From Promethearchaeota archaeon (GTDB lineage Archaea; Asgardarchaeota; Lokiarchaeia; Sigyniarchaeales; SOKP01), in contig JBHLNZ010000006.1 in assembly GCA_048941015.1 (NCBI GenBank), positions 18,431 to 82,430 of the forward strand: a stretch of DNA of 64,000 nt. Direction: 5' to 3'. Of the stretch, positions 36,897-54,799 are shown in pieces. The stretch's first letter is position 1, and each line of letters begins with the position of its first letter. A program made the translations under genes and the position numbers. The notes under the pieces were generated by a model. That model was given only the letters and a program-made list of their open reading frames with translations, made no database searches and was not told where the DNA came from.

Positions 36897-37145
36897 TTAC
36901 CCACCTCCAATAGGGGGAAAAATGGCAATTATATCACCATCCTTAACTATATAATCTTCTTGAATATGAGGCCTACCGTTTACTAATATTATTAATTTTG
37001 TTTTTTGTTCAGAAATTTTATATTTATCTAGAATTGATTTAATAGTGCTGTTTTTTGGGAATCTTTCTTTTGATTTTGCAGGTCCATAATTTAATAAATC
37101 GGCAAAAAATTTAATCGTGACAATAATTTCGCGATTTTCACTCAT
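36897..37145 (-). CDS. moaD: MoaD/ThiS ubiquitin-like sulfur carrier
   Basis: Beta-grasp pattern ending DGDIIAIFPPIGGG; downstream of aor. Confidence 0.85.
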   Translation of the reverse strand: MSENREIIVTIKFFADLLNYGPAKSKERFPKNSTIKSILDKYKISEQKTKLIILVNGRPHIQEDYIVKDGDIIAIFPPIGGG

Positions 37146-37425
37146 CTTCAGCTCTCTTGAAATACCATTTATATAATAGGCTCATGTTCTTAGGAAAAAT
37201 ACCTACTCTATCTCCATCTTTCACTTTTTTACTGAATCCAGCATAAATACTATTTACGAATATGTGGCTAGTTTCATTCTTTTCAATCGAAAATTTCTCT
37301 AATATATCTGAAATAGTTTTCACTTCTGATGAATTAAGATCTAACGTTAAAGGTGCTGCACCTGGTTCTAGATTTTGTTGGATTTTTTTTCTTAAATCTC
37401 CAAATATTCTCAGATGGATCGTCAT
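37138..37425 (-). CDS. MoaD/ThiS-like protein lacking C-terminal Gly-Gly
   Basis: IFVN...VKDGDRVGIFP followed by KNMSLLYKWYFKRAEDE. Confidence 0.75.
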   Translation of the reverse strand: MTIHLRIFGDLRKKIQQNLEPGAAPLTLDLNSSEVKTISDILEKFSIEKNETSHIFVNSIYAGFSKKVKDGDRVGIFPKNMSLLYKWYFKRAEDE

Positions 37426-37442
37426 TTTTAATCCGTAGCAAA

Positions 37443-39185
37443 TTAAAATACACTATCTAAATCTTCATCAGTTACATTAAACACTTCATTGGTAGGTGGC
37501 AACTTTTCTTCTAAGAAAAATTCTGGAAGTCTATCATGCACCGATGTAAATCCTGCAGCTTTATTGAATGCCATCTCGGTATCTATTATTTGTTTACCAT
37601 AAGGTGCTACATCATTTACCGTCAATGATGCGCCTAATACACCGTTTAAGGATTCAACAACACCTTGTAATCCTTCAGGTATATCTAAAATGGCAAATGC
37701 AATAAATAGGCAATATCCCGTAGCATCTACAGCAGCTGTTGCTATTTGTAAAGTACGTGATATTTCCGCCTTTTTTGGGTCTCTGGGATCAGCCTGTCCA
37801 CCAACTCCGAGAATCTCTGGAGCGATAGCATAACCTGCGGTATGGTCGGCACCCATCGGAGTTGTTGCGTAAGTTACACCAATACCTTTAATTGCTCGGG
37901 GATCATATGCAGGAAAACCCTGACCTTTTACGGTTGGAATTCTTGTTACTCCTAATACTTTTCCGGTTATTTCGGTACCATTAGCAAGAATCTTACCCGT
38001 TGGTGTTTTTCTCCTTATTTCCTCCATGAGTTTGAGAGCACCTTTTCCATCTCCAAAATCAATTAAACCGCCTTCCATTGCTACAGCAAGGGTATCTCCC
38101 GCCTCGATTGTATCTAAACCTAAATCATTACAAGCTCTATTTAATTCTCCAACAGTATCTAAATCGTAAATCCCACAGTTTGCTCCTAATGCCCAAACGC
38201 TTTCATATTCTAAAACTCCAACAGGATCCTTTCCACCTGGTTTTGTCCAAACTTCTGAACATTGAATTATACAACCTGGATTGCAGAAATGTGGACGTAC
38301 TCCCCCTCTTTTCTTGATTTCCTCTGCTTTTTTTTCTCCCGAAATGTTCTGAGCTCTATCATCTTGCCCTGCTGAAAAATTTCTCTGTGGTAATCCACCA
38401 GCTTCATTAATAATATTGACTAACACACTTGTTCCATAACTATTTAAAGCACCTCCTGGTTTTGTAACATCGTGAGTTGTAAGTGCTTCTCTAAGCTTTC
38501 TAATTCCTTCCCTAAATACTTCCTCATTAGCAATTTCTACTCCTGGTGCACCCGTTTCATCAACAACAATAAACTTCAGACCTTTAGATGCCATTACTGC
38601 ACCTAGCCCACCTCTACCAGCATATCTACTAGATAATCCTTCAGGATCATTAAAACAAAGACCAGAGGCACTCCCTAAAATTTCCGCTGCAATACCCACT
38701 CCACAAATACTAACATTCTTATCACCAAACTCCTTAAATAAATCTTTATAAACTCCATATAATCCTTTTCCAGACCATTTATTAGCATTGATAATTTCAG
38801 CACCATCATTAGTGACCTTTAAAAGATAATAATCATTCCCTTTATGTTTACCTTCAACAATTATGGCACCAATTCTCATGCGAGCTACCCTTTGAGCAAA
38901 ATTAGTCCCTGCGTTTGCTTCTTTTATTCCACCTGTTAAAGGAGATTTCCCTCCAACAGATATCCTGCCTGAAGTTGGAGCAGCTGTTCCAGTCACTATA
39001 CCAGGAGCTAAAACTAACTTATTATGAACTCCTAAAGGATCACATGTTGGTGGAACTTCTTTAGAAACGATCGTCGAAGTCATTGCTCTACCGCCTAGTG
39101 CCGCATATTCACTAGGTAAGTCTTCAAATTTTGCTTGAAGATTTGTCATATCTACTCTTAATATTCTTTTTGGCAAAATTTTCAC
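37443..39185 (-). CDS. aor: Tungsten-dependent aldehyde:ferredoxin oxidoreductase family
   Basis: KSPLTGGIKEANAG, AGRGGLGAVM, EYES, DLGLDTI and YDPR motifs. Confidence 0.92.
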   Translation of the reverse strand: MKILPKRILRVDMTNLQAKFEDLPSEYAALGGRAMTSTIVSKEVPPTCDPLGVHNKLVLAPGIVTGTAAPTSGRISVGGKSPLTGGIKEANAGTNFAQRVARMRIGAIIVEGKHKGNDYYLLKVTNDGAEIINANKWSGKGLYGVYKDLFKEFGDKNVSICGVGIAAEILGSASGLCFNDPEGLSSRYAGRGGLGAVMASKGLKFIVVDETGAPGVEIANEEVFREGIRKLREALTTHDVTKPGGALNSYGTSVLVNIINEAGGLPQRNFSAGQDDRAQNISGEKKAEEIKKRGGVRPHFCNPGCIIQCSEVWTKPGGKDPVGVLEYESVWALGANCGIYDLDTVGELNRACNDLGLDTIEAGDTLAVAMEGGLIDFGDGKGALKLMEEIRRKTPTGKILANGTEITGKVLGVTRIPTVKGQGFPAYDPRAIKGIGVTYATTPMGADHTAGYAIAPEILGVGGQADPRDPKKAEISRTLQIATAAVDATGYCLFIAFAILDIPEGLQGVVESLNGVLGASLTVNDVAPYGKQIIDTEMAFNKAAGFTSVHDRLPEFFLEEKLPPTNEVFNVTDEDLDSVF

Positions 39186-53319: not shown

Positions 53320-53832
53320 ATGAATATAAATAAACAAAATATCTCGCGTAAAGCATTTGAACTTGGTCAGAAATATGAACGAGAGTGTACAGGATGTGCT
53401 CAAACCGTTATAGCTGCCATTTTTGATGCTCTTGGAATTTGGAATGATGATGTATTTAAATCTGCTAGTGGGTTAGCGGATGGATTGGGTTTAACAGGTG
53501 ATGGCGCTTGTGGGGCATTAGTAGGTGCATCAATGGTAATAGGATACTTATTTGGAAGAGAGAGAAATGATTTTAAAGATATGATGAAACCTATGAAATC
53601 TTATGCTTTAGTTAAGAAACTTCATGATATATATATAAAAGAGTATGGATCTTGTCGTTGTTACAATGTTCAAGAAAAATTATTAGGAAGAACTTATAAT
53701 CTTTGGGATGCTGATGAATTAAAAGAAGCATTTCATTCAGGAATGATGAATCATTGTTCTAAACTCGTTGGAAATGTTGCTAAACTCGCAACTGAAATAA
53801 TATTGGACCATGGATTTATACCTAATATATAG
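53320..53832 (+). CDS. C-GCAxxG-C-C family putative redox protein
   Basis: GCAQ, CGALVG, C..C pattern. Confidence 0.85.
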   Translation: MNINKQNISRKAFELGQKYERECTGCAQTVIAAIFDALGIWNDDVFKSASGLADGLGLTGDGACGALVGASMVIGYLFGRERNDFKDMMKPMKSYALVKKLHDIYIKEYGSCRCYNVQEKLLGRTYNLWDADELKEAFHSGMMNHCSKLVGNVAKLATEIILDHGFIPNI

Positions 53833-53847
53833 TAATAAGGGATTATA

Positions 53848-54366
53848 ATGCTCAATAAGAATATTATGTCTCGATTCGATGAGAAAATAAAAGAAATGGA
53901 AAAAAATCTCCCCAATCTTAAAAAAGGAGCCAATTGTGCAGAATTAACGTTAACTAATATTTTAGATGTACTGGAAATAGATTCCTATTTATTTCATAAT
54001 ATTGCTATGCCATTAGCAGGAGGATTTGGAGGTTATAAATCTAAGAAAGGCTGGCAAGGTGCTTGTGGTGCAGTAGCAGGAGGATGTGCTGCGATAGGAG
54101 CTATAATGGGTGGTCAAGAAAAAATGAATGTGGATAAAATGGCAATCGCATATTTAAAAGCTGCTAAATTTGCAACAGAATTTGAAAAAGAATTTGGAAC
54201 AGTTGTATGTTCCGAACTCTGTGGTTATGATTTCAGTGAACCAACCGGTTATATAGAATATTTAGAAAATAAAATTTGGGTAAAAAAGTGTTATAAATAT
54301 GTCGTATGGGCTGTTGATAAAGTAAGAAATTTAACCAAAAATGACCTTAAGAGGTATTGGGAATAA
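53848..54366 (+). CDS. C-GCAxxG-C-C family putative redox protein (tandem paralogue)
   Basis: NCAE, CGAVAGG, CSEL and KC motifs. Confidence 0.85.
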   Translation: MLNKNIMSRFDEKIKEMEKNLPNLKKGANCAELTLTNILDVLEIDSYLFHNIAMPLAGGFGGYKSKKGWQGACGAVAGGCAAIGAIMGGQEKMNVDKMAIAYLKAAKFATEFEKEFGTVVCSELCGYDFSEPTGYIEYLENKIWVKKCYKYVVWAVDKVRNLTKNDLKRYWE

Positions 54367-54523: not shown

Positions 54524-54799
54524 ATGAGTCTTGAAGACGAATCACGATTTTGTCCTTACTGTGGTGTTAAATTACAGCATCCTTATTGGCAGCATGTGCA
54601 ATAATATTCTGAATTCCAGAATATTGGACAAAAAGAGCATCCCGATAAGTATGCGCAGAAGGAAACTTGGATAAAACTTTATCAAGATTATAGAAAATTA
54701 GGTATGGAACAAGATATTTCTCTCACTGTTATTTCAGAATTATTTAATGCTACTGAAGAAGAGATTAAATCTTTTCTTAAGAATGCCAACGTTCTGTAA
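54524..54799 (+). CDS. 81-aa C2H2 zinc-finger + helical (HTH-like) protein, join(54524..54601,54632..54799), interrupted by a putative BHB-type intron
   Basis: Spliced product MSLEDESRFCPYCGVKLQHPYWQHVQ^KEHPDKYAQKETWIKLYQDYRKLGMEQDISLTVISELFNATEEEIKSFLKNANVL. The unspliced frame has TAA at 54602. Confidence 0.7.
54602..54631 (+). other. Putative 30-nt archaeal bulge-helix-bulge/loop intron in an mRNA
   Basis: TAATATTCTGAATTCCAGAATATTGGACAA: 9-bp hairpin, central helix GTGC/GGAC, 3-nt bulges AA^T and AA^A. Confidence 0.62.

Follow-up and report, generated by a model that had tools for sequence, protein, structure and literature searches.

This study concerns a short interrupted gene at positions 54524-54799 of a 64,000-nucleotide (nt) stretch of an Asgard archaeal genome (hereafter the window; coordinates without a contig label refer to it). 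An open reading frame (ORF) starts with the ATG at 54524, runs into an in-frame TAA at 54602-04 and then stays open until a second TAA at 54797-99. All of this had been noticed in an earlier description made from the DNA letters alone (the sequence-only reading), which proposed that a 30-nt insert opening with the internal stop is an intron of the bulge-helix-bulge (BHB) type, i.e. a substrate of the archaeal splicing endonuclease EndA. Deletion of 54602-54631 indeed yields an 81-amino-acid (aa) product with the zinc-finger pattern C-x2-C-x10-H-x4-H, just as claimed.

The host is a Loki-type Asgard archaeon, whose AT-rich genome (29% GC; 3.59 Mb in 144 contigs; 95% complete) is referred to as G000; the NCBI labels on homologues of the gene include Promethearchaeota, Hodarchaeota and Lokiarchaeota. 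In G000, 1667 long ORFs end in TAA, and in another insert-bearing lineage (contig L023) the gene next to the interrupted one naturally stops at TAG; an alternative genetic code is therefore ruled out and the standard code applies.

All elements of the RNA structure put forward in the sequence-only reading were found where they had been placed (Table 1). The insert contains a perfect 9-bp hairpin (h') with a 5-nt loop, which can be extended by a U·G pair between 54602 and 54626. The proposed central helix (H) consists of GUGC opposite GGAC with a G·G mismatch at 54598:54627, and the two 3-nt bulges are AAU and AAA. The outer helix between the two exons was described as too short: CUUAUUGG (54582-89) does pair with CCGAUAAG (54642-49), but the helix goes on with GCAU (54577-80) and AUGC (54651-54), so that 12 of 13 positions are paired. 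Hairpin and outer helix are both predicted by RNAfold, with a minimum free energy of -23.7 kcal/mol (z = -2.73; 3 of 200 shuffled sequences were as good). The hairpin sequence occurs only once in the window (0.01 expected by chance) and once in G000, and no copy was found in 41 other genomes of the genus with up to three mismatches allowed. The intron of a tRNA-Ser(GGA) gene (G000:C116:23778-23882, minus strand) holds GGAAUUCCAG, which has 9 nt in common with the loop region of the hairpin; this match is probably due to chance in an AT-rich genome.

EndA cuts between residues two and three of each bulge, also when the BHB is unconventional, as it mostly is in cbf5 pre-mRNAs (PMC2738675). Application of this rule removes exactly the 30 nt foreseen in the sequence-only reading, and the outcome matches the sequence of the intron-less homologues. 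With CAA repeated at 54599-601 and 54629-31, the product is the same for four different cut registers (54602-54631, 54599-54628, 54600-29 and 54601-30). Only the first of them fits the BHB geometry, with the hairpin following directly after a 3-nt bulge. Other cut registers or bulge placements were considered with regard to the central helix, and none exists that would give four out of four central pairs.

Homologues were searched for with the ORF 54524-54799, translated with its TAA read through, in 61 related genomes (including 41 other species representatives of the same genus) and in 5.8 billion proteins, which resulted in 118 clusters. Of the 61 genomes, 52 possess the gene; they comprise 38 of the 41 congeneric species as well as members of related families. 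Nearly all of the 118 protein clusters are 80-82 aa long, and an 81-aa protein from a transcript assembly with a sequence identical to the joined exons was not among them, an absence that carries no weight as evidence. If the insert is an intron, homologues should be contiguous at HVQ|KEH, and this is precisely what is found, both within the genus and in the related families, and likewise for about 117 protein clusters. None of these clusters contains the insert, nor does the gene of any of the 38 congeneric species, and G000 is the only species representative whose gene holds an internal stop. The empty site in 19 insert-less relatives reads ...CAA|AAA..., in the same register as the predicted cuts 54601|54602 and 54631|54632. 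The distance from C10 to the stop amounts to 72 codons in every genus member, and C10, C13, H24 and H29 are invariant across 35 aligned sequences.

Outside of the window, the insert was detected, with one or two changes, in two further lineages, one represented by contig L039 and the other by contigs L022 and L023 plus three more contigs. Altogether it is known in at least seven independent assemblies from different samples, which form three alleles. The L039 allele was obtained by a 19-mer scan of metagenome contigs, which returned this one new allele and 15 chance matches; it differs from the window in 7 nt. A scan of genome contigs gave only nine chance matches in unrelated organisms. The other lineage came to light by a lone 91-aa protein match, P0003, encoded on five contigs, each from a different sample. 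In the underlying DNA (L022:1100-1375; L023:86-361) the insert is the same except that its stop is TAG and not TAA, and the protein record exists only because the gene caller used a code with TAG read as glutamine. This call also overruns the natural TAG stop of the neighbouring gene (L023:445-756, minus strand). P0003 is thus an annotation artefact caused by the insert. Such genes are missed by standard ORF calling, as the sequence-only reading had supposed, or they are mis-called under a wrong genetic code, as exemplified by P0003. The three insert alleles are mutually closest, with 87% nucleotide identity compared to at most 82% to any insert-less gene, which fits a single gain. Judging from this distribution, with two other lineages that carry the insert but not a single carrier among the 41 further species representatives in the genus, the putative intron is young.

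Both parts of the interrupted gene are under strong purifying selection. The comparison of the window with the L022 allele (Nei-Gojobori method) resulted in a synonymous divergence (dS) of 0.85, similar to that of the neighbouring gene (0.98), and in ratios of nonsynonymous to synonymous divergence (omega) of 0.019 before the stop (exon 1) and 0.074 after it (exon 2). Neutrality of exon 2 is rejected with P = 4.7e-7, and codons 27-60 exhibit four synonymous changes and one replacement. After the TAA, neither ATG nor GTG nor TTG occurs until M61 (54704). Since exon 2 is under such selection without a start of its own before M61, the segment 54632-54703 must be translated from upstream. The substitution pattern therefore indicates a gene that is functional on both sides of the stop; relaxed selection on the exons, the sign by which the sequence-only reading would have recognized a pseudogene, is not what we observed.

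The insert itself is more conserved than synonymous sites. Only 2 of its 30 sites differ, whereas in the exons 22 of 63 synonymous third positions have changed (P = 3.6e-4), and even for a neutral rate of 0.25 the conservation remains significant (P = 0.011). The two changes concern both partners of the hairpin pair 54604:54624, which is A:U in the window, A·C in L039 and G:C in L022; the other eight pairs and the loop are invariant. The simplest history of this pair is G:C to A·C to A:U. The stop is kept as a stop in the insert alleles, either as TAA or as TAG.

There are also differences between insert-bearing and insert-less genes in the exons. The helix between 54577-89 and 54642-54, in which the HPYW codons pair with the HPDKYA codons, is formed at 12 of 13 positions in all three insert alleles, but the same positions allow only 5-9 pairs in 19 insert-less relatives and eight in the closest one. 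The only change in this helix between the lineages is U·G to U-A at 54587:54644 in L022. None of the seven synonymous third positions in the helix has changed, in comparison with 22 of 63 outside of it (P about 0.05). Since the nearly complete pairing is seen only in alleles with the insert, these comparisons indicate that the exons contain an RNA structure linked to the presence of the insert.

The enzymes for such a splicing reaction are encoded in G000. An EndA gene (C37:4776-5024) scores 70.6 bits with PF01974 and 81.7 bits with TIGR00324, the latter above the cut-off of the model; it is alpha-sized (205 aa) and its closest solved structure is 1A79. A C-terminal fragment of a second EndA-like protein, cut by the contig start, is located at G000:C26:1-129 (plus strand; L052; PF01974, E = 0.0026) and may represent the structural beta subunit. 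A further match to PF01974 on contig C29 is spurious (E = 0.5, with an internal TAA). The ligase RtcB is encoded at C58:70506-71813 (E = 1e-168). Asgard EndA has been reported to be an (alpha-beta)2 enzyme with an L1 loop that gives broad specificity (PMC5829648).

Every computational check suggested in the sequence-only reading turned out in favour of its proposal. Taken together, we consider it likely that 54602-54631 is a young, relaxed BHB-type (HBh'-like) intron, which EndA and RtcB remove from the pre-mRNA for a C2H2 zinc-finger protein of 81 aa. Two A-rich 3-nt bulges would be presented by the intron hairpin together with the distal exon helix, and EndA would cut after the second bulge base on each side, i.e. 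at 54601|54602 and 54631|54632. RtcB would then ligate ...GUGCAA to AAAGAG..., and the 30-nt intron would be released. Since the junction lies within the helix carrying the two histidine ligands, only the spliced mRNA would encode the finger. With regard to the flanking helices, the 9-bp hairpin directly 3' of the 5' bulge provides the required two or more pairs, and on the exon side a distal 12-bp helix is found in place of an adjacent one.

Several observations weigh against this interpretation. The exon helix that directly adjoins the 3' bulge has a length of only 1 bp. The central helix has only three of four pairs and its mismatch is present in all three alleles: position 54598 is G or A opposite G54627 in the insert alleles but T or C in 19 of 19 insert-less relatives, so that a pyrimidine as in these relatives would have paired. 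Neither RNAfold nor RNAalifold predicts the central helix. In the fold favoured by RNAalifold, the exon segments 54594-97 and 54637-40 instead form a competing helix, and a U·G to U-A change at 54637 backs it. The covariation in the hairpin, based on three alleles, is not significant (313 of 500 shuffles were as good), and the L039 hairpin contains an A·C mismatch. Moreover, a relaxed BHB with three of four central pairs occurs by chance at many boundaries (bioRxiv 10.64898/2026.10.13.758758). Our rough estimate of the chance of this BHB fit alone is about 1 in 15. Since a relaxed BHB is so easily met by chance, the shape by itself is weak evidence. The zinc-finger insert is also the weakest of the inserts found in coding genes of G000 (see below), since the other four all have complete central helices. 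Finally, at the sequence level the locus agrees equally well with a translational mechanism.

This mechanism is programmed translational bypass of the type known from T4 gene 60 and the byps elements of yeast mitochondria, which would give the same 81-aa product from an unspliced mRNA. Peptidyl-tRNA-Gln on the CAA at 54599-601 would slide over 30 nt, pair again at the CAA at 54629-31 and restart with the AAA at 54632. The sequence-level hallmarks of bypass (PMC7026636) are present and conserved in the three alleles: the take-off CAA is directly followed by TAA or TAG, the hairpin starts at 54602/03, and a matching CAA ends the 30-nt gap, a fit as good as that to splicing. The purifying selection on exon 2 and the conservation of the insert suit bypass just as well. 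However, the inserts in the phosphofructokinase, GTPase and DnaG genes of G000 do not have matching border codons, and in uL11 a hop between the matched AAA codons would make the protein one residue too long, while PF03946 positions 20|21 are joined exactly by the BHB cut. These inserts speak against a general role of bypass in this genome. Furthermore, a ribosome at the take-off codon should cover the 5' strand of the insert-specific exon-exon helix, located 10-22 nt upstream, so that the helix presumably could not act at take-off. To our knowledge, no bypass element is known in archaea. We regard bypass as unlikely, and that the insert would represent the first programmed bypass element of an archaeon, within an mRNA that stays unspliced, seems quite improbable. 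The same low probability as to bypass is assigned to a conserved RNA structure with a different role, for instance a regulatory hairpin that keeps the finger protein off or a structure processed by a different nuclease, with the full-length protein made rarely or by another route. The insert including its loop is invariant except for one pair, which is more than a BHB needs, and the central helix is kept mismatched, both in favour of this idea. On the other hand, the selection on exon 2, with no start before M61, requires regular translation from upstream, and no known mechanism besides splicing or bypass provides this.

Two further explanations have to be weighed against splicing. Since the insert is a multiple of three and contains a single stop, TAA or TAG might sometimes be decoded, resulting in a 91-aa protein with ten extra residues, and the public record P0003 reads through in exactly this way. 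This record is, however, the TAG-to-glutamine gene call that also overruns the natural TAG of the neighbour. Moreover, the ten residues would split the two histidine ligands inside the finger helix, where no family member has an insertion; the two substitutions within the insert affect bases that pair with each other in the RNA and are not synonymous; and the stop lies inside the stem instead of upstream of a stimulatory structure. Stop-codon readthrough is therefore very improbable. The least probable explanation is a pseudogene that arose from a palindromic insertion, or a sequencing or assembly artefact. An early in-frame stop in a short gene would be expected for a pseudogene, and the CAA repeat at the borders could be a target duplication. 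However, an omega of 0.02-0.07 on both sides of the stop across a dS of 0.85 leads us to reject the pseudogene reading, and the insert is even more conserved than synonymous sites. No other copy of this element exists in the genome or the genus, and the occurrence in at least seven assemblies from different samples contradicts an artefact. Endonuclease splicing thus remains our preferred explanation.

G000 was also examined for similar inserts, as the sequence-only reading had suggested, and there are indeed further ORFs with stop- or frameshift-causing BHB inserts. A first structure-only scan for BHB-shaped inserts that merge two open frames gave 7121 loci. A second one with a codon-usage filter, a scan of bulge sizes and a mirror-repeat decoy revealed no enrichment (706 true versus 933 decoy loci for a bulge size of 3). 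The structure-only scan is swamped by chance matches in a genome with 29% GC, and it missed three of the inserts listed in Table 1 (uL11, phosphofructokinase and DnaG). The one other well-scoring match in the window (37422-37447, minus strand) was discarded, since it merely separates a MoaD/ThiS-like gene from the aldehyde:ferredoxin oxidoreductase gene before it. In the region concerned (36897-39185, minus strand), two small genes of the MoaD/ThiS-like kind come after a gene (580 aa) similar to aldehyde:ferredoxin oxidoreductase; the 17-nt gap flagged there lies between ordinary neighbouring genes.

At least four other coding genes of G000 hold inserts that obey the cutting rule. These inserts, in uL11, DnaG, phosphofructokinase and a Rab-like small GTPase, all possess four of four central pairs and A-rich bulges; three of the 3' bulges are AAA and one is AGA. 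The DnaG exons match NF003108 at positions 1-26 and 27-278, and the cut joins 26|27. Since three of the four inserts shift the reading frame, they cannot be explained by readthrough. They resemble the zinc-finger insert in their size of 29-38 nt, in the A-rich bulges, in a stop soon after the 5' cut and in the exact restoration of the protein. In contrast to them, the zinc-finger insert has only three of four central pairs, is in frame and young, and is accompanied by a co-varying exon helix. With respect to tRNA genes, aragorn detected just 19 in this 95%-complete genome, seven of them with introns and several of these of the BHB type; presumably most of the tRNA genes of G000 are hidden by non-canonical introns.

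Table 1. Coordinates of the interrupted zinc-finger gene, its proposed splicing elements and further inserts in coding genes of G000
Feature	Coordinates	Strand	Evidence or remark
Exon 1, codons 1-26 (ATG to CAA), with C10, C13 and H24	54524..54601	+	ORF reading, selection, alignment
30-nt insert, proposed intron; opens with in-frame TAA 54602-04	54602..54631	+	BHB-rule register
Exon 2, codons 27-81 from AAA plus stop TAA 54797-99; H29 and three-helix C-terminal domain	54632..54799	+	Selection, AlphaFold2 (AF2) model
Intron hairpin h', arms 54603-11 and 54617-25, loop 54612-16	54603..54625	+	Folding, three alleles
Proposed central helix H, 5' strand GUGC	54596..54599	+	3/4 pairs with 54626-29
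Proposed central helix H, 3' strand GGAC, in intron	54626..54629	+	Invariant in three alleles
Proposed 5' bulge AAU, predicted cut 54601/54602	54600..54602	+	Geometry and cutting rule of PMC2738675
Proposed 3' bulge AAA, predicted cut 54631/54632	54630..54632	+	Geometry
Distal exon-exon helix, 5' strand, codons Q18-W22	54577..54589	+	Pairs with 54642-54; folding
Distal exon-exon helix, 3' strand, P-D-K-Y-A codons	54642..54654	+	Pairs with 54577-89
uL11 insert, 29 nt, frameshifting, full hBHBh' shape	G000:C119:398-426 (L025:398-426)	+	Cut joins PF03946 20|21 (GPAV|GPTG)
Archaeal DnaG primase insert, 38 nt, frameshifting, central helix GGCC/GGCU, AAA bulges	G000:C115:14774-14811 (L055:1775-1812)	minus	NF003108
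Phosphofructokinase (PFK) insert, 31 nt, 9-bp stem, two in-frame TAG	G000:C58:4416-4446 (within L026)	minus	Removal restores GGDCPGLN
Rab-like small GTPase insert, 33 nt, in-frame, ends in TAA, inside P-loop	G000:C3:37709-37741	+	Cut restores GxxxxGKT (GAKNVGKT)

The protein encoded by the joined exons shows the characteristics of a C2H2 zinc finger, i.e. Cys-x2-Cys, a spacer, His-x3-5-His and, in the AF2 model, a beta-hairpin plus helix (beta-beta-alpha), although the spacer comprises 10 residues compared to the classical 12. In the AF2 model of the closest contiguous homologue (pLDDT 79), a beta-hairpin formed by residues 8-17 bears both cysteines and a helix at 21-28 bears H24, with H29 directly after it, followed by a three-helix domain. 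According to this model, the insert would fall inside the finger helix, between the two histidine ligands. No Pfam family matches at cut-off, the best being zinc-ribbon models with 17-18 bits, and a Foldseek search against the PDB gave no significant fold match but just weak resemblances to three-helix, helix-turn-helix-like proteins (E > 1). The sequence-only reading had called the protein likely DNA-binding. The zinc-finger fold is supported by the model; since there is no significant family or fold match, a DNA-binding role is no more than a guess. Directly upstream of the zinc-finger gene there are two tandem genes of the C_GCAxxG_C_C family (53320-53832 and 53848-54366, plus strand). The order of this pair and the zinc-finger gene is preserved in the L022 lineage.

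The closest parallel to the proposed intron is that of cbf5 in Crenarchaeota (Aeropyrum, Sulfolobales, Desulfurococcales; PMC2738675). In both cases a short intron interrupts an archaeal coding sequence, with a BHB-like and in cbf5 mostly unconventional motif, predicted cuts between the second and third bulge residues, and a patchy distribution (from gain and loss). The EndA of the cbf5 hosts is hetero-oligomeric and broadly specific, as that of the Asgard host may be as well. The proposed zinc-finger intron differs by its occurrence in an Asgard archaeon and in another gene, by its length of 30 nt, by being in frame and by opening with a stop. It further exhibits a conserved purine·G mismatch, and its exon helix is distal, separated by spacers of 6 and 9 nt, instead of adjacent. 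Splicing of cbf5 was demonstrated by cDNA and in vitro cleavage, whereas that of the zinc-finger gene is predicted. The non-canonical BHB/HBh' introns in tRNAs of Asgard archaea and Thermoproteales (PMC11291895, PMC5829648, bioRxiv 10.64898/2026.10.13.758758) belong to the same size class, have the same build of hairpin plus bulges and are presumably processed by the same enzymes. However, the host RNA of the zinc-finger intron is an mRNA, in which no tRNA body aids recognition and the motif's exon part consists of codons.

Like the zinc-finger locus, T4 gene 60 and byps (PMC7026636, PMC5462505) have matching border codons some tens of nt apart, the first of which is followed by a stop with a stem-loop, but they operate on bacterial or mitochondrial ribosomes and need a nascent-peptide signal. 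In addition, the genome context of the zinc-finger insert points to endonuclease splicing. In eukaryotes, the HAC1 and XBP1 mRNAs are spliced independently of the spliceosome; they are cleaved by IRE1 and joined by tRNA ligase or RtcB. As would be the case for the zinc-finger gene, a short intron is removed at stem-loop sites and a transcription-factor-like protein depends on splicing. The nuclease is IRE1, however, and not EndA/TSEN, and stress regulation has been shown for HAC1/XBP1.

The sequence-only reading had stressed the rarity of such introns. In the literature we searched, crenarchaeal cbf5 is the sole documented case in which the tRNA endonuclease splices a protein-coding RNA, and no paper reporting such splicing in Asgard archaea was found. 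A tRNA-type mRNA intron therefore has a precedent, but belongs here to a lineage for which no published report was found. Asgard archaea are the closest archaeal relatives of eukaryotes. The locus is a useful natural experiment on the establishment of an intron within a coding sequence and on the contribution required from the exons: the putative zinc-finger intron is young and under selection across a dS of 0.85, and the codons surrounding it have been reshaped into an exon-exon helix.

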